Below, piece by piece: positions 580-16,751 of a stretch of DNA of 20,000 nucleotides. Each line of letters begins with the position of its first letter. The stretch's first letter is position 1. The notes under the pieces were generated by a model. The model did not search any database, was not told where the DNA came from, and saw nothing but the letters and a program-made list of their open reading frames with translations. Made by a program: the position numbers and the translations under genes. The DNA is taken from the IMG/VR virus record IMGVR_UViG_3300031839_001517. One strand, written 5' to 3'. The stretch comes from an uncultured virus (IMG/VR IMGVR_UViG_3300031839_001517) (Duplodnaviria; Heunggongvirae; Uroviricota; Caudoviricetes).

Positions 580-781
580 TTTTCTTTTTTATAATCACTC
601 CAATTGGAGAATGGTTCACATCATCCAACCAAATTGTTATTTCTTTATCTCTTTTCTGTTTTTCAGAAAACGAAAATTTTATACTTTTTGTGGCAGCCTT
701 TAAAGCTGCTGATTCTGACGAGTGTTTACTTACTAATTCGCCCTGAATATATCCGTTATGTTCTTTATATACTTTCCACAT
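572..781 (-). CDS. hypothetical basic protein (69 aa), 3' end overlaps tmRNA by 8 nt
   Basis: TAATG coupling to upstream gene; last codons AGG GGA TGA lie in the tmRNA 5' end. Confidence 0.75.
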   Translation of the reverse strand: MWKVYKEHNGYIQGELVSKHSSESAALKAATKSIKFSFSEKQKRDKEITIWLDDVNHSPIGVIIKKKRG

Positions 782-1365
782 TATAGCATGCCATCAATAG
801 TAGTTCTCATGTATTCCTCACTGAATCCTGTGTGCCCTAAGTAAATGCTTAAATCTCTTGTTAGATAGATATAGGTTGGGTACCCCTGAACATCATATCC
901 AGTAACCCCACTTGGATCCATAACTTGTCCAGCAGGCGCCTGCAACACTGGAGAGGAAGTATTTCCGTGACCCTCGGCCCATGTTTGAACATCTTCTTGT
1001 GTGGTAGGTAAGTTTTCGATACCAGCCATTAGCAAAGTAACAATAACCACTTCGCCGGCGTAGTCATCTTGTATTGGTTGAGCATAATGACCAGCGCTCT
1101 GGCATGGGCCACACCATGCTGCGGAAAAGTCTAAAATAACTACCTTGCCTTCGTGTTCGTATAATCTCCATGGATTTCCTGTATGATCATCAAATTTGAA
1201 ATCACAAACTGTGGCACCTATCTGATCATGACTACAATCTTCTGCGGCCGCAATCCCGTACTCTATTGGTGGTAGCTGTGGTAGTTGTTCGCCGCTATCA
1301 TCTGTGGCTACTTCTAACTCTGCTGGCCCACAGCCTAAGACGGTCAATAATATTAATTTAAACAT
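781..1365 (-). CDS. TlpA/redoxin-family thiol-disulfide oxidoreductase lipoprotein
   Basis: start at MFKLILLTVLGC (lipobox LGC, SD GAGG); GKVVILDFSAAWCGPC thioredoxin motif and GYPT cis-Pro motif. Confidence 0.88.
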   Translation of the reverse strand: MFKLILLTVLGCGPAELEVATDDSGEQLPQLPPIEYGIAAAEDCSHDQIGATVCDFKFDDHTGNPWRLYEHEGKVVILDFSAAWCGPCQSAGHYAQPIQDDYAGEVVIVTLLMAGIENLPTTQEDVQTWAEGHGNTSSPVLQAPAGQVMDPSGVTGYDVQGYPTYIYLTRDLSIYLGHTGFSEEYMRTTIDGML

Positions 1366-1726
1366 TCTGTTTTTCCTCTTTGTCGGTATCAAAAAACTTA
1401 TTAATTTGATACTTCTTACATATATTTAGAAATTCTAAGTACGTTAATCCCAAAAATCTGGATGCATCTTTTTTAGATTTAGTAGCCGAGATGGCAAATT
1501 TGAGAGTAGCCTCCTGAACAATGTTAGGGAGTGCTCTCCATATATCAAAACCATATAACCTGTTGTTAATATTATTAGCTGCTAATTCAAGCTTGACAGC
1601 AATTAAATCTTCAAGAGATAATGAGTTAAGAGAAACTAGTAATTGATCATTAAGTAAATTCTGTTCTTTTAAGATCTTAATTATACTTTTAGATTTAGTA
1701 GTGATCTTCTTTGTTTGTACTGTCAT
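1358..1726 (-). CDS. putative Fis-like helix-turn-helix DNA-binding protein
   Basis: C-terminal TKSKKDASRFLGLTYLEFLNICKKYQI resembles the Fis HTH pattern (N..xAA..LG.....L...+KKY.I). Confidence 0.55.
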   Translation of the reverse strand: MTVQTKKITTKSKSIIKILKEQNLLNDQLLVSLNSLSLEDLIAVKLELAANNINNRLYGFDIWRALPNIVQEATLKFAISATKSKKDASRFLGLTYLEFLNICKKYQINKFFDTDKEEKQNV

Positions 1727-2849: not shown

Positions 2850-4864
2850 TTTGTAATGCCTCTTTTCATAATTAGTTCTATAACCTCATCAATCAAACTT
2901 ATATCGATATATTCGTTCTTCTTTTTCTTCTTGGGTCTAGCCGACCCATATCCCAAAGGGGCCGCATATCCTCCAGCCGCCGCTGCTGTGGACATTTCCT
3001 CTACACCCACGAGCCCTAATATATCTAATATGGCATCGACATTCTCTTCACCAACAAAGTCAGCTATTTCTGCTTTGTTTCCGGATCCGGCGCCTAGTGC
3101 ATTTCTAAATGCTGTTGCACTGTATGGTTCTCCACTAGCACGCACTGTGGGATTAACTGCGGTCTTTTCTGGATCAAGTAGCTTTACCCCGTTCTTAACG
3201 TATTTTTCTGCACCGAGCCATCTTTTCCAGTCGTCATCTTTGGTACTGGCGCCCAATATGGCCCTGTCACCCACGTTCAATGGTCCCTTATCGCCAATAA
3301 AATCATATGCTGCAGTTATAGGCGAGGCATGGTCTTTTGAAGCCTCAACGCTAACGTTGGGCATGCCAGAAACCATGACTTGCCATATCTTAAGGGAATC
3401 GTCAGAAGTGATCTCTCTACCATCTGGCAGGTATCTTCCTCTTTTGGTTGGCTTTGATATGATTACTACAACTTCGTCTGCCATATCAGCGTACTTTCGG
3501 ACCATGTCCAAGTGCCCTCGATGTGGTGGTTTAAACGCCCCGGGTACCACAGCGACAGTTTTTGGGTAATCAGAGTCGACTACCGGATCATCTGACTCAT
3601 CATCTACAAAATCTATTTCAATTTCTTCATCTATGTCTTCTTGCATTCCTGAACGTCTTGCTCTGCCGATAATCTGATTAGCCATAGCAAATGCACCGGT
3701 GAGTTTATAAATTTTATCAGAACCCGGTGGATATTCAAATACAACACCTTCCATAGAAGAAGCAAGATTCTCTATCTTTCCAAGTTTTGCTAACTGCTTG
3801 TCAACAAGTTCTCCCATCTTTTCATCGCCTGAAGACTGCAATGCTTTCAAATAGGTAATCGATTGTTCAAGCTCTTTTCTCATTCTGTCAACTTCTTTGT
3901 CGTTATCTTTTACAAAGAAACTTTTCACTCCACGAAGTACTTCAATAGCAAAATCGCTAATAGCCACTTCGAGAGGTTGTAAAACGGATGAGATATATTT
4001 TCTAGAATTTGTCTTTGAGCCAAGCTTGGATACCACTGATTGAAGTTCTTTTGGTAATCCTTTTTTGAGATTTACAACGGAGATGCCTCTCTCTTTGGCT
4101 TCATCTGGATTTAACATCAACATTATAAGCTTGTCAGTCACATCTCTTGGTAGATCTACTTGGTCTGCATATTTTCGCACCACCAACTCAACATAACTTG
4201 CTAAGCTGCCATCCATGCCAACGGGTCCAGCAAAAGATTTGATACGTCGACTAACCTCTTCAACTGCGGCGCCGTCGGCAAGCTTTTTTAAAGCTACAAT
4301 TTTTGGTCCATGGACACTCCACTGTTCACCGCCGACTTGTTCGCTAGCACCATCGATAAGGCCAGCCAACTTGGTAAACTTTTGTTTTGTCTCTGATCGC
4401 ATTTCTGGTGTTTCATCTTCGTCACCAAAGTATTGCAATCCGTGCAAAACAATATTTGGAGCAGAATACAAAATAATATTAGGATTATTAGGATACATAA
4501 TCTCCATGTTAACGTACCTCTGGCCGTCCGCAAAGATTGTTTCCAACTCCTCTGGGCTTAGCTTACGCAAAGCCGCTGAGACCGCCTTAAAACCGTTTGT
4601 AAAGGCATTTTCTGCTGGGTGTCCTTTCCATTTACTGATATACTCATCAGTTGTCATTCCACCCTTCTTTACATCGCCGCTATTACGAGCAGTTTTTATT
4701 TCTCCAGAAGAATCGACGGTCAAAAACAAATTCTGACCGTCAACCTTTTCCGTAGCGTTATCTATCTCGGCAAGCGCCACCTTTTGGAGGATGCTGACTA
4801 TCTCATTGAAAGTCAGACTCAGGTCCTCCGAAAGGTGTGCCATGTGTCCGGCAACACCACCCAT
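2846..4864 (-). CDS. fusion of RNA-ligase-like covalent nucleotidyltransferase and C-terminal HxGH (cytidyltransferase-like) domain
   Basis: motif I TEKVDG, ARN, motif III NMEIM, motif IV EGVVF, motif V IYK; C-terminal PGAFKPPHRGH and YSATAFR. Confidence 0.8.
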   Translation of the reverse strand: MGGVAGHMAHLSEDLSLTFNEIVSILQKVALAEIDNATEKVDGQNLFLTVDSSGEIKTARNSGDVKKGGMTTDEYISKWKGHPAENAFTNGFKAVSAALRKLSPEELETIFADGQRYVNMEIMYPNNPNIILYSAPNIVLHGLQYFGDEDETPEMRSETKQKFTKLAGLIDGASEQVGGEQWSVHGPKIVALKKLADGAAVEEVSRRIKSFAGPVGMDGSLASYVELVVRKYADQVDLPRDVTDKLIMLMLNPDEAKERGISVVNLKKGLPKELQSVVSKLGSKTNSRKYISSVLQPLEVAISDFAIEVLRGVKSFFVKDNDKEVDRMRKELEQSITYLKALQSSGDEKMGELVDKQLAKLGKIENLASSMEGVVFEYPPGSDKIYKLTGAFAMANQIIGRARRSGMQEDIDEEIEIDFVDDESDDPVVDSDYPKTVAVVPGAFKPPHRGHLDMVRKYADMADEVVVIISKPTKRGRYLPDGREITSDDSLKIWQVMVSGMPNVSVEASKDHASPITAAYDFIGDKGPLNVGDRAILGASTKDDDWKRWLGAEKYVKNGVKLLDPEKTAVNPTVRASGEPYSATAFRNALGAGSGNKAEIADFVGEENVDAILDILGLVGVEEMSTAAAAGGYAAPLGYGSARPKKKKKNEYIDISLIDEVIELIMKRGITK

Positions 4865-5115
4865 TACTTATCTCCCTGAGATTCTTCTATTATATTAAGT
4901 TTTTCTTGGAGCACATCAATATTACTTTCCATACGGCGAGCAAATCTCTTAACTTCTCGCAAGTGTGTCTTTGCGAGTTGGAGTCTGCGTTTTTCGACCA
5001 TTGTCCTTGGTTTAAGATTGGAAATTATTTCTTGGAGACCTTGAATATAGGTAAAGATGTTCTTTTCATCAAGACTCTCGTTAAGAAAATCTCGCCATTG
5101 TGTGTTTAATGACAT
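4864..5115 (-). CDS. hypothetical coiled-coil protein with N-terminal WRDFLNE motif
   Basis: ORF with GAGG SD, TAATG coupling to the 672 aa gene. Confidence 0.8.
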   Translation of the reverse strand: MSLNTQWRDFLNESLDEKNIFTYIQGLQEIISNLKPRTMVEKRRLQLAKTHLREVKRFARRMESNIDVLQEKLNIIEESQGDK

Positions 5116-7770: not shown

Positions 7771-7801
7771 GATTGAATCTCCAACTGTATATAGTTTTCT
7801 G

Positions 7802-8500
7802 TCAGCAACTAATCGGTTCTATTTTATACTGTCTCTGGGGGTCATCACCAAAACCAACGACTTTGTAAATAAGAAGCTCAAAACCCACGGGTTTGATTTC
7901 TTCAATTTGATTGTTGTCACATATTTTTAACATAACATCGTCAATATTCTTCTGTGAATCTTCGTAGTACTCTATTCTATTGATATTCGATTTGCCATCG
8001 GGCATTATCTTGTTTTTCATCATCGCAATCATCACATCTCCTTTTGATTCACCTTGGGTAGCTATTGGTCTGACTTGTGATGCGTCAACACCAATCTCAT
8101 CTAGATAATCCATGATAGGGCCAAGTGAGTTTCCCCGCCGCGCTGTCAAGATATACGTCTTAGAATTTTGAGGAAGATTTTTCATTATGTCTGTGACGAT
8201 GGTAATTTCATCTGGATCTTTTACTATCGAAAAGTCACTCAAATCAATTTCATACCCAAGTTCTTGCAAATCTCTTACCGGGTCAAATGATTCTATACCC
8301 TCTTTGGCTGCTGCTTCCTTCATATACTCTTCAAACTCTTTCTGGTCACGTAGGGTCGCCGTAGAGCCGTCAGGGGCAGTAACACGTGTTTCTGACCTCG
8401 TATGGGCTATTGTTTCATCGAAGTCAAAAATGCGGAGGGTTGTAACGGGCTCATACTCTTCATTAACGAACTTTCGCCAATTTTCAAGTAGGAGTTTCAT
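7802..8500 (-). CDS. HAD-superfamily phosphatase (RNA-repair/PNKP-like HAD) with MKLLLENWRKF leader
   Basis: motif I IFDFDET, motif II ILTAR, K, motif IV YYEDS; start at 8500 inferred from the shared leader. Confidence 0.82.
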   Translation of the reverse strand: MKLLLENWRKFVNEEYEPVTTLRIFDFDETIAHTRSETRVTAPDGSTATLRDQKEFEEYMKEAAAKEGIESFDPVRDLQELGYEIDLSDFSIVKDPDEITIVTDIMKNLPQNSKTYILTARRGNSLGPIMDYLDEIGVDASQVRPIATQGESKGDVMIAMMKNKIMPDGKSNINRIEYYEDSQKNIDDVMLKICDNNQIEEIKPVGFELLIYKVVGFGDDPQRQYKIEPISC

Positions 8501-8939
8501 AAGTCTTTCCAAATATTTCTCTGCCGACAACTCCGTAATCGCCGGGACCATATTGTACTAAATAGTCGCCCGGTGCACCTTGAAGCAAATCGTCTGACCA
8601 AGATACTTTTACTTGAAATGGTTCCGACATCTCTTTGGCAAATACCGGTATATTCTTTTTGGAAGCAGTCCCATCGCCCAAATCATCATATGTTTGTGCA
8701 AACTTCTCTGCTGGAATAGGCCATTGTTCGCCTTCAGTACCGGTCATGATCGCATCGCCGGCTTTAGCGCTAACAGGGCCTTCCTTGGTTTCGATAGTTT
8801 CACCAGTCTCAGCATATCTAAATTCTAACGGAATAGGTTTCTTGGCAGTCTGGAAGCCGTCTTGCGATAAATCAGGGTTATCATCCAGTCCGATTGTCTC
8901 TGTTATAAACTTCCGCCAATTTTCAAGCAGAAGTTTCAT
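8484..8939 (-). CDS. PGDYG-type protein (internally duplicated domain) with MKLLLENWRKF leader
   Basis: two repeats KK...GD...G..G(E/D).....E.F..TY; literal PGDYLVQYGPGDYG. Confidence 0.75.
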   Translation of the reverse strand: MKLLLENWRKFITETIGLDDNPDLSQDGFQTAKKPIPLEFRYAETGETIETKEGPVSAKAGDAIMTGTEGEQWPIPAEKFAQTYDDLGDGTASKKNIPVFAKEMSEPFQVKVSWSDDLLQGAPGDYLVQYGPGDYGVVGREIFGKTYETPT

Positions 8940-9178
8940 TTTACTTCCTTCACTGAATCATCCATCATATCATCAAAATCAGTGCGCAACTTAATCATAG
9001 GATTAAATTTAGCATGTTTTCGTTCTAAAAGCAAGGACCCTTGTGGTTTTACTAAGGTTCCGTCAACTTCAACACCTTCAAAGTCAATTTCAGTTTTCTT
9101 TTTATAAACAACCTTGGGTTCTTCTTCATCATTAGCATATGCTGCCCCAGACAACAATAAAAAGATTAAAAACTTCAT
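8936..9178 (-). CDS. cglF: adventurous gliding motility protein CglF/GltF homologue
   Basis: signal peptide (AAYA) then VVYKKKTEIDFEGVEVDGTLVKPQGSLL...FNPMIKLRTDF matching the CglF/GltF pattern as recalled; SD GGAGG. Confidence 0.75.
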   Translation of the reverse strand: MKFLIFLLLSGAAYANDEEEPKVVYKKKTEIDFEGVEVDGTLVKPQGSLLLERKHAKFNPMIKLRTDFDDMMDDSVKEVK

Positions 9179-9507
9179 TTATATTCCTCCGCCAAACCCT
9201 CACTTAATAAAAGAGTGTTAATGTTGGTTTCACCGATAAATAGTACCCCCAAACATCTTCCGTATTTTCCAACTCCGTGAGACTCTAAAACAAATTCATT
9301 GTCAGATTCCCACAGAAGCGCGATTAACCTTTCTTCTGCGGCTAACCCTGCTTTTTTCTCTTCGAGGTCTCTAGTGCGTGTTTCTGGCGTGTTAATGCCA
9401 TATAATCGGATGCGCTTCTTAATCCATACATCAAAACCTAAGTCTATAAGCGCATCGATGGTGTCACCATCAATTACCCGTATCAGTTTCGCGTTGTACT
9501 TGTACAT
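9175..9507 (-). CDS. staphylococcal nuclease-like (thermonuclease) protein
   Basis: RVIDGDT, RIRLYGINTPE, GKYGRCLG, INTLLLSEGLA; start MYKYNAK at 9507. Confidence 0.9.
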   Translation of the reverse strand: MYKYNAKLIRVIDGDTIDALIDLGFDVWIKKRIRLYGINTPETRTRDLEEKKAGLAAEERLIALLWESDNEFVLESHGVGKYGRCLGVLFIGETNINTLLLSEGLAEEYK

Positions 9508-9592
9508 TTTCTTTTTTCTCGTGTTTATCTTGGGTGGTAACAAAAGCAGCAACACTGATGATCACGAATCCTATGATAAATATATCAAACAT
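9470..9592 (-). CDS. small membrane protein (40 aa; not in ORF track)
   Basis: MFDIFIIGFVIISVAAFVTTQDKHEKK...; TAATG coupling to upstream gene. Confidence 0.5.
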   Translation of the reverse strand: MFDIFIIGFVIISVAAFVTTQDKHEKKENVQVQRETDTGN

Positions 9593-9843
9593 TAATTATC
9601 GTATACCTTGTCGTTCTTACTTTTTTCTCTCGCCATCGTTGTTGCTTGTAGCATATCCTCGGCGTCGACTTCCTTAAGTATAAGATTGCCAGTTTTTGGT
9701 TCGTAATACATCCCTATTAGGTCGCCCGTGGACACATTTTTCATTTCTTCTTCTGTGATGGTGATTTTACCACCGTTTTTTTTTACCAACATCGTTAGAA
9801 TACTAAAAAGATATTCCGGATCGTTTAAATATTTGTTAGCCAT
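9592..9843 (-). CDS. hypothetical protein (83 aa)
   Basis: ORF overlapping the end of the upstream gene. Confidence 0.8.
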   Translation of the reverse strand: MANKYLNDPEYLFSILTMLVKKNGGKITITEEEMKNVSTGDLIGMYYEPKTGNLILKEVDAEDMLQATTMAREKSKNDKVYDN

Positions 9844-12169
9844 TTAAAAAGCCCTTCCAAGTTCTCACAAGGCCTTCATTTGTTTGCATCGATGCTGGTT
9901 TGCGCGCTTCAACAAACTGAGCCAGCACTCTTCTATAAACTACATTGAGATTGTCTTCGTCGTCCATTTCGCCTTCTACAAGTTCTTGAAATAGGTTAGC
10001 CATAATATCAGGCTCGTCAGCATTGATTGAGAATATAGAAGTATATTTAATCTCACCACCAACCTCTACTGTTGTAGCATTCATTTGCAGGTAGTATTGG
10101 GTGTTTTGAGCCTTTCTAGGCTCTTCAAGCAACTGTCTCCTCAATTCAATCTTAAAGTCGCGAGAATCAAGAATCTGAGCCAATACACGGATATCAAGAC
10201 CAAACTCCTCTGGATCATAGTAGAAGGAATGTCTTGCTGTGGTTTCGTATGAGTCGTAGTACTCGCCGTCAGTTTCAACGTCCCATTCGTATGAGGATAC
10301 CATGCCGTCCTCAATAGCGGTTGCTAGCTGGATGTAAGTGCCGCCTTCCATCTGACCTTCACGCTTAAAGTATGTGGTGAGCACTTCTTCAAAAGTATCT
10401 CTTCTGTCGTCAATAACAGAATCAATTTTTTGAAGTGCCTCTCGGTATTCATCAGGTAGGGCCATGTATGAGTTGCCGTAAATGCTTGGATGCTCAAAAT
10501 TAACCTGTATAGATAAATGTACTTCTTCTCGAATACGACGGATTGTAGGAGTATCAACATCAGACGGGTAAAATATATCACCAAATATTTCATTTAGCTC
10601 ATCAACTGAATTCCATACAACTTCTTCTGCGTTGCTCGGCAGTCTTTTCCAATCGCTCACATCCCATTTGGCGACAAATGCTGCAAAAGGTTTAATATAA
10701 GCACTGTCGCCACCATCATCACCAACTTCGTAGTCGGTGTATGTCTGAGCCATTCTGTTGTTGTAATCAATCCTTATATCTTCACATTCACCTTCGTATT
10801 GTGCGATAATATCACCAACTAAGTTGGCATCAAGACTATCTTCGGTGTCTGTGTTTTGCTTCATACTACCTTCGACTTCTACATCGGGCCCTAAAAGTTG
10901 ACGCATCAAACTAAGGCGCCCAGCAGTTCCAGCAGTGTCTTCATATGAGCCACCAAAAATCATAAATTTGCTTAAATCAATTTTACCATCTTCTTTGGGC
11001 ATGTTTTGGATGACTTCTTCTTGGTTTGATCTTGCCCAGTCAGTAACTTGATTGGCTAAACCGGGGATATCCGCACCATACACTCGTTTTTCAGGCATTC
11101 CAACGTCTTGCCCATCATCATAGCGCTTTGGAGGTTCATCACCTTCATAATATCTGACATGTCGGATACGTGTGCGAGAAATTGGCTCAATATCACCGGT
11201 AAATGGACGTTTATCGTCAGCAAATATCTCGCCTTCTTGGATTTCTTGCTCTGCACTATCAATATTGCCCGTGTTAGTAGCGCTCAGAAGGTCTTCTGTC
11301 TCTACCACATAGGCAACCGCCCCGTGCCCCTGAGCCTCGGCTACAGCGCATTTATAGTACGATTGATAAGCATTTGCACGACTAGCAGGAGAGTGGCAAG
11401 AGGTAATATCGTCAAAATCGCTCATTCTTAGCACATCTATCGGATGTCGAGTGATAATAATGGAAAATTTGTCACTATCAAGTTCATTAATGTTATTTTT
11501 GATGTATGCGGCGTTCTGTTTCCAATATTCACCGTATTTTGTAGCTAAATCTTCTAAATCATAACCAGCGGGTCCAGCCACACCAGGAGCGGGGATATAT
11601 AAGAGGATTTGTTGACTTATACGCCTATAATCTTCATTTTTTTGAAATTCTGGGTCATTTTTGGCTATTTCTTTCTTTTTTCTTGCTAAATCTGCTATTT
11701 TGACAAACAGTTTGCCAATTTTCATCTGAAACTTCTTAATTTTCTTCTTTTGTGGGCTACCAGTAAGAGAAGCAATGAAATCTTCAACCTTTGTTACTTC
11801 TCTGGTCGCAGAAACCATACCTTTCTCCCAATTTACATCATATTCTTGTGTTTCAAAGAATTTTGCGAACTTTCCAAGCTCTGTAGACGGATCAGTGGTC
11901 GGAAATGGTATGACAACACGCATTTTGCCACTAAAAAGATCATTTAGGGGTAAATTGGCCGGATCTAAGTCGTCCAGTACGTCTTCAAGCACTCGCATCT
12001 CGTCTTCGGTGACTTCACGGAGCACTTTCTCACTGACCGGGACACAATTAGGTACATTTTTAGCACCCTTCTTCTTCATGCCGACCTGTTTATAGCCATC
12101 CCAGCACTTTTCTTGCAAAGTATCCAGAAGATGGACTGTTTTTAACAGAATTTCTTCATCATTTAGCAT
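9836..12169 (-). CDS. large acidic phage protein with N-terminal CWDGY...VPNCVP module
   Basis: start MLNDEE with GGAG SD; central TRHPIDVLRMSDF..TSCH motif; C-terminal WKGFLNG. Confidence 0.8.
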   Translation of the reverse strand: MLNDEEILLKTVHLLDTLQEKCWDGYKQVGMKKKGAKNVPNCVPVSEKVLREVTEDEMRVLEDVLDDLDPANLPLNDLFSGKMRVVIPFPTTDPSTELGKFAKFFETQEYDVNWEKGMVSATREVTKVEDFIASLTGSPQKKKIKKFQMKIGKLFVKIADLARKKKEIAKNDPEFQKNEDYRRISQQILLYIPAPGVAGPAGYDLEDLATKYGEYWKQNAAYIKNNINELDSDKFSIIITRHPIDVLRMSDFDDITSCHSPASRANAYQSYYKCAVAEAQGHGAVAYVVETEDLLSATNTGNIDSAEQEIQEGEIFADDKRPFTGDIEPISRTRIRHVRYYEGDEPPKRYDDGQDVGMPEKRVYGADIPGLANQVTDWARSNQEEVIQNMPKEDGKIDLSKFMIFGGSYEDTAGTAGRLSLMRQLLGPDVEVEGSMKQNTDTEDSLDANLVGDIIAQYEGECEDIRIDYNNRMAQTYTDYEVGDDGGDSAYIKPFAAFVAKWDVSDWKRLPSNAEEVVWNSVDELNEIFGDIFYPSDVDTPTIRRIREEVHLSIQVNFEHPSIYGNSYMALPDEYREALQKIDSVIDDRRDTFEEVLTTYFKREGQMEGGTYIQLATAIEDGMVSSYEWDVETDGEYYDSYETTARHSFYYDPEEFGLDIRVLAQILDSRDFKIELRRQLLEEPRKAQNTQYYLQMNATTVEVGGEIKYTSIFSINADEPDIMANLFQELVEGEMDDEDNLNVVYRRVLAQFVEARKPASMQTNEGLVRTWKGFLNG

Positions 12170-12265
12170 TTTTTCTCCAATCGCAATAATCACAAGACAT
12201 TTCATCTACCAAAGGCATACCACAATTGGGACACTTACTACATTTTATCATAAAAAACACAGTTT

Positions 12266-13291
12266 TTATTCCTTCATTGACTTAGAGCCGCGGCACTTCC
12301 ACTTTTTGCGAGACAATGCGTTAGCACATGGGGGGTTTTTACACTTTTTAATCTTTGCTGAGCGCGCACAATACGCATCACCCTTAGCTGTTCCGGGTCT
12401 GATGCGATCTCCGCCGCCTTTTGCTTGCCCTTTCTGTCCAAACGAGCGACATTTTCCGTCTACGCGCTTAGCAAAACGCTTTCCTTTGGAAGGTTTACAA
12501 GGTTTTTTTGCTTTTTCGCTTAAAACTTGGGATAATTCGTCTTCGATCATGATTTCCATAGATTCTTTTTTAGAGTTACCCCAGTTGGCTGCTCCAACTT
12601 TGCGACATTTTACCAGCGCACCCGAGGCATATGCACTTGGCCACACTTTGTAGCGTGATTTTACCTTGTTGTAGCAAGCATCCTTCTTACCTTCTTCTTC
12701 ATCAAGCTCTTTTTTAGAATTAGTACCGATTTTGATGACTTTCACGGGAGAATCTGAATCATAAGTTTCGCAAGGGTCTTTGCCACACCCACAATTCATT
12801 TTTTCTTCTTTTAACTCATCATCATCTGTTTGATCAAGTATCTTTTTGATACGATCCGACTGACCTTTGTGCATTTTAGAAGCCCCGGCAAGCTCATCGG
12901 CTATTTTTTTGAGTTCTTCCTCATGCTCTTTAGAGTGAGATTCGGAAATAACTGCCGTAATCTCCTCTTCAATCATTTTGTATAAATCCATTTTGTATAA
13001 TTCCTCGTTTTTCTTTTTCTTAGCTTTCTTGCCCCATGATTTTCCCTTCCCACGCTCCTTGCAGGCGCCAGGAGTAGGCCGGCATGCAGGATATTTCTTG
13101 CGTTTTTCGCCAGAACCACGGCCACAAGACTTGTATCCGCCTTTCCCGTCCGGAGAATTACAATCAACCCATCCTTTTTTAGAACCTTTGGCGCCCTTAC
13201 GGCCAAACCAATCACGTAAAGAAGACTCTTTACTGGACTCAGTCCCTGCTTTTTTCTTTTTTTCTTCTAGGGAACCATATAAATCAGACAT
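12266..13291 (-). CDS. Lys/Cys-rich modular phage protein (possibly virion-internal, nucleic-acid binding)
   Basis: basic modules LRDWF..WVDC..CGR..YPACRP, KDACYNKVKSRYKVWPSAYASGALVKCRK and FGQKG..AYCARS..SRKKWKC separated by acidic L-x-E linkers. Confidence 0.8.
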   Translation of the reverse strand: MSDLYGSLEEKKKKAGTESSKESSLRDWFGRKGAKGSKKGWVDCNSPDGKGGYKSCGRGSGEKRKKYPACRPTPGACKERGKGKSWGKKAKKKKNEELYKMDLYKMIEEEITAVISESHSKEHEEELKKIADELAGASKMHKGQSDRIKKILDQTDDDELKEEKMNCGCGKDPCETYDSDSPVKVIKIGTNSKKELDEEEGKKDACYNKVKSRYKVWPSAYASGALVKCRKVGAANWGNSKKESMEIMIEDELSQVLSEKAKKPCKPSKGKRFAKRVDGKCRSFGQKGQAKGGGDRIRPGTAKGDAYCARSAKIKKCKNPPCANALSRKKWKCRGSKSMKE

Positions 13292-13733
13292 TTTTAGACA
13301 TTTCCAAAGCTTGCTCCAATAAATAGATCGGTATTTCGCTATTGGCAATCTCTTTTATCTCTTCAAATGTGGCCCATCTGTAATCATCATGCTCGACAAG
13401 TCCAGTTTCTGGGTTAGGCTTATCAACATTAACTGTGCCGGACCATGTTTTTGTTAAAAAATAATACTTTTGTGGCTTTGGTTCGCCAAGATAAATTAAA
13501 TCACTCGTATTACATAACAAGCCGGTCTCTTCATCTAGTTCTCTAACCGCCCCTGATTCAATTGACCGGTCCTCTTCGTCGATGTGACCGCCCGGAATCG
13601 TCCATTGACCTCCTCTTTCATCTATATTTGAACGTCTGATGATTAAAAATTTATTATTTTCGTCCAAACAAACAACAATACCCACAGCACTTAGCTCGCC
13701 TTCTGATAAATATTGTTGCCATTTGGTTTTCAT
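13284..13733 (-). CDS. NUDIX hydrolase
   Basis: WTIPGGHIDEEDRSIESGAVRELDEETGL Nudix box; start MKTKWQQYLSE directly after upstream stop. Confidence 0.92.
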   Translation of the reverse strand: MKTKWQQYLSEGELSAVGIVVCLDENNKFLIIRRSNIDERGGQWTIPGGHIDEEDRSIESGAVRELDEETGLLCNTSDLIYLGEPKPQKYYFLTKTWSGTVNVDKPNPETGLVEHDDYRWATFEEIKEIANSEIPIYLLEQALEMSKNV

Positions 13734-13734
13734 G

Positions 13735-14460
13735 CTACCTGCATGCTCGCATAGTGCCCTTTGGAAGGCCATGGCACATATTTTTTAGGATAACATCCAT
13801 TTTTATTGTCTGGATTGGGGCAACCCAAATCATATTTTCTTGTACTTGGACACCGGGATAGTATTCTACATCAACTCCGTACAGAATTCCAACAATATCT
13901 CCCGATAAAGTGTATACTACTGAGCCAGAACACCCAAACCATCCATATGTATTAACTATAATTTGCTTTGCTAGTCCTGCTTTTTCAGCATATCCCGCAA
14001 CACTTCCTTCAAATGTCATAAGTTGGTGACTCGAGGGGTACCCAGAGTATGTTATTTCAGTTCCAACTTCAGCTGTTCTGTTTTGAGGGCTCCATTTCAT
14101 CGGACTAATCGTAACAAACTTTTCTGACAAATGTAAAACAGCCATGTCCGCGCTGGCACTGGACCATATCAAGGTAGCCATTCTCATTTCTTTATCTTTG
14201 TACACGTAATATGTTGAACCTATTGGTCCATCTGTAACGTGCTGTGCTGTAAACACTAGATGCGCATCTCTATATACAATATACGACCCGCTGCCATGAC
14301 CACCACCAGTATTTATCTTAACAGCAGCTTCTCTAACTCGTTTTTGTGCCATATTCATTGAAGAATTAATTTGTTCAACTGGCGCTGGAATACTGGTTTC
14401 TGCTTTCACTGGCGAAATAAAAGACATCATCGCAATCATCATTATATGTAAGTAACTCAT
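13735..14460 (-). CDS. secreted trypsin-like (S1) serine protease
   Basis: signal peptide (VKA|E); TAQHV, DMAVL, GCSGS catalytic triad motifs; GGAGG SD. Confidence 0.88.
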   Translation of the reverse strand: MSYLHIMMIAMMSFISPVKAETSIPAPVEQINSSMNMAQKRVREAAVKINTGGGHGSGSYIVYRDAHLVFTAQHVTDGPIGSTYYVYKDKEMRMATLIWSSASADMAVLHLSEKFVTISPMKWSPQNRTAEVGTEITYSGYPSSHQLMTFEGSVAGYAEKAGLAKQIIVNTYGWFGCSGSVVYTLSGDIVGILYGVDVEYYPGVQVQENMIWVAPIQTIKMDVILKNMCHGLPKGTMRACR

Positions 14461-14472
14461 TTATATTCCCTC

Positions 14473-15489
14473 CTAGGAACCACTACCGGTGTCTATACCC
14501 GTGTCCGGCGTGCTTATATATCTATATCCAACTTCTACTAACTGACCTGCGGATGGAATAATAGTAAAATAAACCGTGTTGTTCGACTCTTGATAATACC
14601 AATCATGGTTCAAAGAACCATTAATGAACACCCTAATTGAATCAACCTCAGCTTTGTGGGTTAATACCACTTCTTCAATAGGTTCAATCGAATGAGTTGC
14701 ATCGGTTACACCGGGAGACCAGTCAGTGTCACAAATATCGACAACCACTCCACCCAATAATCCTGTGGCTTCCATATATCTGTCACCCACATCAATAGGG
14801 TTTGGAGGGAAATCACACACAGAGTCAGTACCTTCGCGATTTACGACACTTGCCATAAAGACTGATCCCATCCGCAATGATCCATACCAGCTTAAGAAAT
14901 CAGACACAGCAGGATATTCCACAGTGCTTTGTTCTTCTTCATCCGAAACAAATACTACTAATAATCCTGCATCTGGGCGCATCCAAGTTGAAGAATAGGG
15001 ATTGTGATTCATATAATCATATACAGAATTGAACCCCTCTTCATATGGCGCCGATGTAAGAGTTGCCAACATTGTGGCTGCATCATCGATGTCATCACCC
15101 GGTACCAATGGAAATTCAGTACTAAGGACTGCTTTACTTGGATCAGCACTAATCATCACCAATCTCCAATCAGAAGTTGGTAAAGCTAATAGCATAGCTT
15201 CAACGCCGGCTAATAATTCTGCGTTGTATCGACCCATAGAACCTGATCGGTCGATGACCCATAAAATATCAATTCCGTCGATTGACATATGTTGCGTAAA
15301 TGAATCAATCCAAATTTCACCCTCATTAACTGGTACTTCTACTTCAACATAGACCGGCACCTCCACGGGTACCTCTACCTCAACTTCAACCTCTACTTCT
15401 TTATATTCGGTGACAATCTTTGTTCCGCCACCAACCATATAATCAGTGGAACAGCCCACCATACTCAAAACAAAAAGTAATAACCCCAC
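14473..15489 (-). CDS. VWA-domain lipoprotein
   Basis: lipobox VGC; (EV)n stalk; MIDAS DILWVIDRSGSM; VVFVSDEEEQS; GGAGG SD before GTG. Confidence 0.85.
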   Translation of the reverse strand: MGLLLFVLSMVGCSTDYMVGGGTKIVTEYKEVEVEVEVEVPVEVPVYVEVEVPVNEGEIWIDSFTQHMSIDGIDILWVIDRSGSMGRYNAELLAGVEAMLLALPTSDWRLVMISADPSKAVLSTEFPLVPGDDIDDAATMLATLTSAPYEEGFNSVYDYMNHNPYSSTWMRPDAGLLVVFVSDEEEQSTVEYPAVSDFLSWYGSLRMGSVFMASVVNREGTDSVCDFPPNPIDVGDRYMEATGLLGGVVVDICDTDWSPGVTDATHSIEPIEEVVLTHKAEVDSIRVFINGSLNHDWYYQESNNTVYFTIIPSAGQLVEVGYRYISTPDTGIDTGSGS

Positions 15490-16496: not shown

Positions 16497-16751
16497 CTAG
16501 AGTCTAAGCCACCCGACTCGCGTTACGGCACATGAGTTAATGACGTTAATGTCGACATTGCCGTCGATGCTGATATCTTTGCATTGTGTTACAGGAGCGT
16601 AGGGGTTTGGTTGTACGGGTACGGAATCCCCGACCGACCTGTAAGGGATGGGCATAACCTCGGGCTTGGGCATTGCTTGCTCTCGAACTTCTACCACGCC
16701 AGTAGTTGCTATTGCACTCAGTGAAAAAACCAGTATCTTTGCTTTGATCAT
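16497..16751 (-). CDS. small exported protein
   Basis: hydrophobic N-terminus, Pro-rich middle, Cys pair; AAGGA SD. Confidence 0.65.
   Translation of the reverse strand: MIKAKILVFSLSAIATTGVVEVREQAMPKPEVMPIPYRSVGDSVPVQPNPYAPVTQCKDISIDGNVDINVINSCAVTRVGWLRL

Follow-up and report, generated by a model that had tools for sequence, protein, structure and literature searches.

The 80-residue protein P0001, encoded in a 20,000-nucleotide stretch of DNA from an uncultured virus of the Caudoviricetes (IMG/VR record IMGVR_UViG_3300031839_001517; the whole stretch is referred to as the window), is a phage-borne homologue of GltF, a small protein of the Agl–Glt gliding machinery of Myxococcus xanthus. 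GltF and CglF are two names for one protein (PMC4488436). A host-derived gltF was captured by T4-like marine phages of about 190 kb, most simply once, and on balance, with slightly better than even confidence in the explanation as a whole, we consider that its product takes up the GltF position in the bridge of the host machine. The finding is real and unusual: the GltF identity and the phage context are well supported and the host is indicated by two markers, while the mechanism is one that we infer.

A profile search with the NCBIfam model NF033764 (adventurous gliding motility protein CglF) matched P0001 with an E-value of 1.7e-13 and 50.4 bits over its full length, with residues 9–78 aligned to positions 11–87 of the 88 in the model, and so bears out the CglF/GltF-like pattern recognised in an earlier note on this DNA; Pfam and PHROGs searches found no family for the protein. 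The nearly invariant columns of the family (A15, P45, F58, P60, R65, F68 and S75) hold the same residues in P0001. The conserved blocks listed in Table 1 were read from two alignments, A1 and A2, the first of which was too diverse for the genome scan so that the closer set A2 was used instead. M. xanthus GltF (MXAN_4868; NF033764) is an 89-residue protein with a signal peptide, encoded in the gene order gltD-E-F-G-H (Luciano et al. 2011 Table 1, PMC3169522). Both it and P0001 are small exported proteins of 80–90 residues that share three conserved blocks, namely a strand region of the form Y-K-x-x-T-E/v-x-D-F, a region reading F-N/h-P/s-L-I-x-L/I-R and a helix at the C-terminus, and both are predicted to be largely unfolded when alone (for M. 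xanthus GltF, PMC11761067). Unlike its M. xanthus counterpart, P0001 is encoded by a phage, has no Glt neighbour and scores 50 bits against a 90-bit cut-off.

It should be noted that NF033764 is an equivalog model whose curated cut-off is those 90 bits, and that the shortfall of P0001 counts against a strict use of the family name. Among 201 genomes from the relatives' own phylum, the model finds a match at E ≤ 1e-5 in 145 and exceeds 90 bits in only three, with scores that grade without a break between 100 and about 40 bits, and GltF-like proteins are therefore far more widespread than the equivalog model reports. All 38 CglF-matching representatives found when 40 family members were scanned also fall under the cut-off, and positional orthologues lying between gltE and gltG score 51.7, 58.0 and 50.9–58.7 bits, like the phage protein. 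Because positional orthologues score 51.7–58.7 bits and only 3 of the 201 genomes exceed 90, the cut-off is narrow, and P0001 belongs to the wider GltF/CglF family while falling outside the narrow equivalog set of NCBIfam.

CglF-like domains are also found inside long cellular proteins (P0156, P0223 and P0202, with E-values of 1.5e-12 to 6.3e-10 to P0001). In P0156 and P0223 the domain sits behind a VIT/VWA module and ahead of an AgmX/PglI (TonB-like) C-terminal domain, and in P0202 it is fused to an AgmX/PglI domain; these proteins have the same CglF-like domain adjoining a TonB-like domain but are long and multidomain, whereas the phage form stands alone. Long fused forms were noted among P0156, P0223, P0222, P0264 and P0202, in which the VIT/VWA module is similar to the ‘marine proteobacterial sortase target’, and a 186-residue form consists of the CglF-like and AgmX/PglI C-terminal domains alone.

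The nearest record to the window is a viral contig with an identical gene, and relatives of P0001 were found at 28 IMG/VR loci (54–91% identity; the longest contig measures 195,690 bp). The guanine plus cytosine (GC) content of the viral loci is 0.35–0.42 compared with 0.48–0.71 for the cellular loci. One viral locus, L026, lies in the genome G002 and has 11 of the 13 window proteins in common; G002 (195,690 bp; loci L188–L197) and G003 (187,355 bp) are both 100% complete according to CheckV, and both encode a T4-type major capsid protein (PF07068; E 8.5e-60 and 2.1e-61, respectively). Read as a whole, G002 has 237 open reading frames (ORFs) over 95% of its sequence, eight tRNAs and a transfer-messenger RNA (tmRNA). 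It is classed as ‘linear’, but the 40 bases with which it starts are found again at position 195,590, and this terminal direct repeat of about 100 bp fits a complete genome. Terminase_6C (PF17289) was not found in five related viral records. A tblastn search of G002 at E ≤ 1e-3 found no GltC, GltD, GltE, GltG or CglE, nor the neighbouring choice-of-anchor D protein, and tblastn found a Glt neighbour in 0 of 29 viral loci, so that the phage gene does not lie in a glt cluster between gltE and gltG. The lack of Glt neighbours on the phage is expected for a captured gene, and the phage took the small linker alone from the machine. Fourteen seawater or marine metagenome runs, which belong to seven studies dated 2019–2025, contain DNA near-identical to positions 7800–9900 of the window (0.98–1.00 of sampled words), and some of these runs may themselves be the source of the window DNA.

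The cellular relatives considered here are the best 80 of 160 from the scan, taken as one genome per prokaryote species, and the closest copies are in metagenome-assembled genomes (MAGs) labelled Myxococcota or Deltaproteobacteria. A tblastn search with the Glt proteins of one locus found Glt neighbours in 78 of the 80 cellular loci; the two exceptions, L068 and L073 (on MAG contigs of lower GC, 0.51 and 0.48), have neither Glt neighbours nor phage neighbours like those of the window. A complete gltG ORF lies directly downstream in 63 of the 80. NCBIfam assignments give the order gltC, a gltD-like TPR protein gene, gltE, the small gene, gltG and cglE for L033 and L034. For L031, where the locus begins just upstream of the small gene, they give small gene–gltG–cglE. 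The positional orthologues in marine Myxococcota-type MAGs, which lie between gltE and gltG as in M. xanthus (PMC3169522), are 64–79% identical to P0001, and the GltF proteins of L030–L035 are 68–79% identical to it. These last are its nearest rows in the tree and match it in length and in the acidic residues at which the mature protein begins, and the phage clade has substitutions of its own (for example, ERKHAKFNPM versus DRKRANFNPL in L030–L035).

We constructed a GltF tree (83 columns, quick search) from 140 copies, of which 30 are viral, 80 are close cellular relatives and 30 belong to a phylum sample, and in this tree 27 viral rows including P0001 form a starred clade with a Shimodaira–Hasegawa-like approximate likelihood ratio support of 100. 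Next to this clade are the cellular rows L030, L031, L033 and L035 (support 90), followed by L032 (92). The viral rows L027–L029 were placed elsewhere in the free tree, and a constraint holding all 30 viral rows together gave a log-likelihood 21.8 higher (p = 0.82 in the approximately unbiased test). A single capture is the simplest reading because the constrained tree is more likely, and independent captures by L027–L029, as suggested by the free tree, were rejected since a single viral clade of 30 rows fits better. The comparison with host copies called for in the earlier note thus leaves the viral clade nested among cellular GltF. Phage gltF has a GC content of 0.34, and of 0.27 at third codon positions, compared with 0.52–0.58 and 0.64–0.85 in the cellular sisters, and synonymous sites are saturated between the phage and cellular sister genes. 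Together with the tree, this shows a gene of cellular origin that has been recoded to phage composition.

Selection was assessed on the window and L002–L026, 26 viral rows that provide 19 distinct coding sequences (L027–L029 were excluded, and L001 is identical to the window). The mean proportion of nonsynonymous differences was 0.129 and that of synonymous differences 0.663. Of the 171 pairs, 94 had 0.05 < dS < 2, and for these the ratio of nonsynonymous to synonymous substitution rates (dN/dS) had a median of 0.095 and a maximum of 0.30; the other 77 pairs were saturated. The capture is old, and purifying selection maintains the protein.

A second marker of the host is provided by the phage tmRNA, which is present in four of five related viral records. 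The phage tags (ANNNLHFEQRLAA, ANNNNHFEQRLAA, ANNNNHFESVRLAA and ANNNLYFEEALAA) start with ANNN[LN][HY]F, and those of the genomes with the closest GltF are ANNNNHFAAAAVA, ANNNNHFAATAVA, ANNNDNFAAAAVA and ANNNSHFALAA, starting with ANNN[NS]HF in G007, G010 and G011 and with ANNNDNF in G008. Among the comparison tmRNAs, the 30 best-scoring from a 61-genome phylum sample, an ANNN.HF start was found in none and an ANNN start in four. We counted the tag as a host marker and did not count the tmRNA tree, in which the phage clade and three candidate hosts are joined (support 96). A DNA search of the candidate-host genomes with the whole window recovered only gltF (65–72%) and the 3' end of the tmRNA, with no spacer-like match. 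The two markers, GltF and the tmRNA tag, suggest that the hosts come from a marine lineage of Myxococcota type in which a gltC-D-E-F-G-cglE cluster is present. The earlier note had gone further and inferred a gliding predator as the host; the closest GltF and the tmRNA tag agree with it as far as the Myxococcota-type lineage, which may or may not glide or prey. Glt cores that are related but have other roles are described in PMC3169522 (Luciano et al. 2011).

Gliding and GltD clusters both depend on GltF in M. xanthus, and the protein is itself found at focal-adhesion clusters (PMC3169522). The earlier note had called it outer-membrane-associated, which needs to be corrected as PMC4488436 and PMC11761067 give a periplasmic, or periplasmic and inner-membrane, location and a predicted role as a linker. 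In the 2025 structural model, which is an AlphaFold model, GltF is largely disordered. Its C-terminal helix occupies a crevice in GltC, which serves the outer-membrane platform as periplasmic connector, and one of its strands lines up with a strand of the TonB-like domain at the C-terminus of GltG, so that GltC, GltD and GltG are bridged (PMC11761067). An AlphaFold2 monomer prediction of P0001 has an extended shape and no globular fold, its sole helices being the signal helix and one at residues 69–79 (predicted local distance difference test score, pLDDT, 79.6; predicted template modelling score 0.23). This monomer, the conserved blocks at residues 27–45 and 65–80 and the CglF–AgmX/PglI fusions agree with the published model of GltF, and the two blocks, mapped by counting from the C-terminus, may be the modelled GltG-pairing strand and GltC helix, respectively.

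We also predicted a complex between mature phage GltF and the C-terminal domain (residues 545–652) of the L031 GltG, which gave an interaction score from aligned errors (ipSAE) of 0.43 (0.45, 0.42 and 0.43 in the runs) compared with 0.01 for the best of three controls, with contact agreement between runs of at least 86% and a partner pLDDT of at least 49. Of 157 solved complexes, 116 reach the mark used here, as do two of 215 mismatches; at ipSAE ≤ 0.60 only 18 of the 157 reach it, and both mismatches do. As we had expected binding beforehand, we take the prediction to lend mild support to a GltF–GltG contact in the Myxococcota-type lineage.

From this we propose that GltF would be made from the phage operon, exported by means of its signal peptide and cut back to a mature form of about 65 residues, and that it would then take the GltF position in the host GltG–GltD–GltC bridge, which links the inner-membrane motor to the outer-membrane platform, because both modelled contact elements are kept. 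A labile host GltF could in this way be replaced after host expression has been shut off, and the machine would keep working during the infection, much as is reasoned for other phage auxiliary genes that are conserved, full-length and similar to those of the host. We consider replacement of a labile host part to be the most likely effect, though we hold this at a little under even confidence; it fits a full-length, host-like and strongly conserved copy with both contact elements.

A number of observations weigh against this proposal and the host assignment. The supports of 90–92 for the cellular sisters are unstarred and come from a tree of 83 columns, and the join in the tmRNA tree is between two long branches with a raw identity of 45–47%, no higher than to others. 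The GC content of the phage (0.41) is far from the 0.52–0.62 of the candidate hosts. The slot that holds gltF, between the genes for the 789- and 83-residue proteins and that for a 108-residue protein, is spanned by 64 of the 80 loci found via the 108-residue protein, and only 20 of these 64 related phage loci carry a GltF-like ORF, so gltF is dispensable for the phage group. The tool verdict on the GltF–GltG prediction, for which our own alignments were the input, was no more than ‘weak support’, and with an identity of about 80% between the phage protein and host GltF, passing it carries little information that is specific to the phage copy. PMC11761067 itself describes the periplasmic complex as being without biochemical evidence. 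Sigma-70-like sites (14 compared with 15.4 expected) are at chance level, as are occurrences of the motif TATAAATA in the late-promoter scan (three compared with 1.5 expected, a count also seen in 44 of 200 shuffles), and there is one terminator-like site compared with 5.0 expected. Finally, the evidence does not tell sustaining the machine apart from blocking it.

Phage proteins that shut down type IV pili and so exclude other phages are known, and phage GltF may likewise interfere with the host machine, although we think this unlikely. An excess of a bivalent linker would saturate GltG and GltC separately, uncouple the platform from the motor and stop gliding or energising, and could also bar other phages from a Glt surface component or its energy. 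The conserved features that fit replacement also allow such uncoupling: GltF is modelled as a bridge with two contact elements (PMC11761067), both of which are kept by the phage copy. Its gene lies in the company of further genes for exported products, which include a trypsin-like protease as well as VWA and thioredoxin-like lipoproteins, and the accessory distribution fits a gene for exclusion or conflict. A dedicated blocker would nonetheless be expected to drop one contact element or to diverge from the host form, whereas the phage copy remains about 80% identical to this form over the mature length and is under strong purifying selection. We know of no Glt component that acts as a phage receptor, which also counts against interference.

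Still less probable, in our view, is that the gltC-D-E-F-G-cglE cluster of these planktonic hosts serves an envelope task other than gliding, such as Tol/TonB-like transport or Nfs-like surface assembly, and that the phage copy supports or redirects this task and not motility. An ancestral core of GltD, GltE, GltG, GltC and AglRQS predates motility and has paralogues with other roles (PMC3169522), the Nfs spore-coat system is one example (PMC4488436), and many genomes in the phylum sample carry two to three CglF-like copies; against this, gltF and gltH/cglE are among the genes tied to the emergence of motility (PMC3169522), and both are in the cluster of the candidate hosts. The suggestion that the locus is chromosomal, a mis-binned bacterial fragment or a chance ORF is rejected with near certainty in agreement with the earlier note, for while there is no recognised structural phage gene in the window (Pfam, PHROGs) and no match to the window (megablast) or the protein (tblastn) among the cultured phages in the collection, the nearest record is viral, most window proteins recur in a complete genome with a T4-type capsid, the GC of 0.41 lies outside the cellular range, Glt neighbours are lacking and the gene is under purifying selection. 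Of the two outcomes that the earlier note named as refuting it, a missing CglF/GltF hit and a chromosomal locus, neither was found.

Cyanophage psbA is a host-like auxiliary gene of T4-like marine phages. Like genes of this type, phage gltF is a full-length conserved copy nested within a host clade and has a phage-like composition. It differs in encoding a structural linker of an envelope-spanning machine and not a metabolic enzyme or part of a photosystem, and in being present in only 20 of the 64 loci.

The gltF ORF has 80 codons and no internal stop. Its N-terminal MKFLIFLLLSGAAYA, followed by the acidic NDEEEPK, has the shape of a type-I (cleavable) signal peptide, in line with which residues 3–14 are a predicted helix in the AlphaFold2 model, and cellular relatives have ...APAFA ahead of the same acidic stretch, QDEEEPK. 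We considered a spanin role and rejected it, as the sequence has neither a lipobox nor a transmembrane segment after the signal peptide. The stop codon of the nuclease ORF upstream lies 4 nt inside the gltF start and the start of the PGDYG ORF downstream lies 4 nt inside the gltF stop, so that each junction is an ATGA coupling gltF to its neighbours. The ORF is not a chance frame, because there are close relatives (480 at 90% clustering and 541 representatives at 50% clustering) and the phage copies are under purifying selection. The intact, secreted and translationally coupled protein described in the earlier note is therefore found again here, with secretion predicted from the N-terminus. 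A 367-nt contig, X15, from an oligo-dT RNA library covers positions 8916–9277 with 17 differences, and other RNA-library contigs cover neighbouring parts only; we rejected these as evidence of transcription as they are assembled contigs of relatives and DNA may be present in the libraries, and gaps in their coverage are no evidence either.

Table 1. Features of the window (positions in nucleotides from its first base)
Feature	Position	Strand	Basis or remarks
tmRNA, tag ANNNLHFEQRLAA	247..579	-	ARAGORN; Rfam RF00023, 106 bits
Thioredoxin/AhpC-like lipoprotein	781..1392	-	among exported phage proteins
Protein with similar start	4864..5115	-	see text for start motifs
Variable slot	7444..12205		loci L198–L274
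Protein with similar start	7802..8551	-	see text for start motifs
PGDYG-domain protein, downstream gene	8484..8939	-	PF14083, E 9.8e-20; also a protein with similar start
gltF/cglF-like gene, 80 aa (P0001)	8936..9178	-	ORF and translation, NF033764 match, identity to MAG genes
C-terminal conserved block RTDFDDMMDDSVKEVK, residues 65–80, predicted helix	8939..8986	-	R65, F68 and S75 nearly invariant
Conserved block KKTEIDFEGVEVDGTLVKP, residues 27–45	9044..9100	-	most conserved in alignments A1 and A2
Putative signal peptide, residues 1–15 (MKFLIFLLLSGAAYA)	9134..9178	-	likely cleavage after AYA; read from sequence
Staphylococcal-nuclease-like endonuclease, upstream gene	9175..9555	-	PF00565, E 2.6e-11; phrog_452 endonuclease, E 2.3e-36
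Shine–Dalgarno-like GGAGGA	9185..9190	-	6 nt upstream of the gltF ATG; read from sequence
789-aa protein	9836..12205	-	short Cys/Lys motif CWDGYKQVGMKKKGAKNVPNCVP
360-aa Lys/Cys-rich protein	12266..13348	-	phrog_727
Protein with similar start	13284..13772	-	see text for start motifs
Trypsin-like protease with signal peptide	13735..14460	-	
VWA lipoprotein	14473..15489	-	lipobox ...SMVGC
84-aa protein with signal-like N-terminus	16497..16751	-	

The slot is hypervariable, and the nuclease, the PGDYG protein, the thioredoxin-like lipoprotein and GltF come and go within it. Further exported proteins are encoded in the same strand block (Table 1), and it appears that several phage proteins, namely the protease, the lipoproteins, the 84-residue protein and GltF, are sent to the host envelope. 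The VWA lipoprotein has an EV/PV repeat and a VWA domain with a DRSGS metal-ion-dependent adhesion site (MIDAS) motif, has 26–29% identical lipoprotein homologues in the candidate-host MAGs and is kept in most related phage loci. We rejected it as a CglB-type adhesin, as it scored 23 bits with the Bdellovibrio MIDAS adhesin model (cut-off 700) and 12 bits with CglD.

Two unrelated window proteins start with LLENWRKF(I/V)xE and two more with NTQWRDFLNE and KTKWQQYLSE, and the C-terminal end of the 789-residue protein, VRTWKGFLNG, resembles this type of motif, which may be a shared targeting or packaging tag. The 789-residue protein otherwise has only its short Cys/Lys motif in common with 188 cyanophage or marine phage records, and the 360-residue protein is encoded by the adjoining gene.

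The earlier note knew of no described phage motility gene of this type, and our literature search, which left out most subscription journals, agrees in finding no report of a phage-encoded Glt component. In the M. xanthus Glt paper (PMC3169522), ‘phage’ refers to the Mx8 attachment site, and a 2026 preprint on myxobacterial viruses brings only surface-glycan genes into relation with gliding (10.64898/2026.09.14.751636).

Known phage auxiliary genes mainly serve metabolism, photosynthesis and nucleotide supply, and a motor linker would be a new kind of host manipulation. The periplasmic bridge is less well understood than any other part of the Agl–Glt machinery, and phage GltF would be a naturally occurring probe for it of only 65 residues. 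The host proposed here for these large marine phages, a widespread group with no cultured member, can also be put to the test. In the widest sense, and here we are tentative and remain rather doubtful, a virus-encoded part of a motility machine may, as a supply or an excess of the GltG–GltC linker, control how force is passed across the host envelope, either keeping the host moving or freezing it and excluding rivals, and the hosts of these ocean phages of about 190 kb may be marine Myxococcota.

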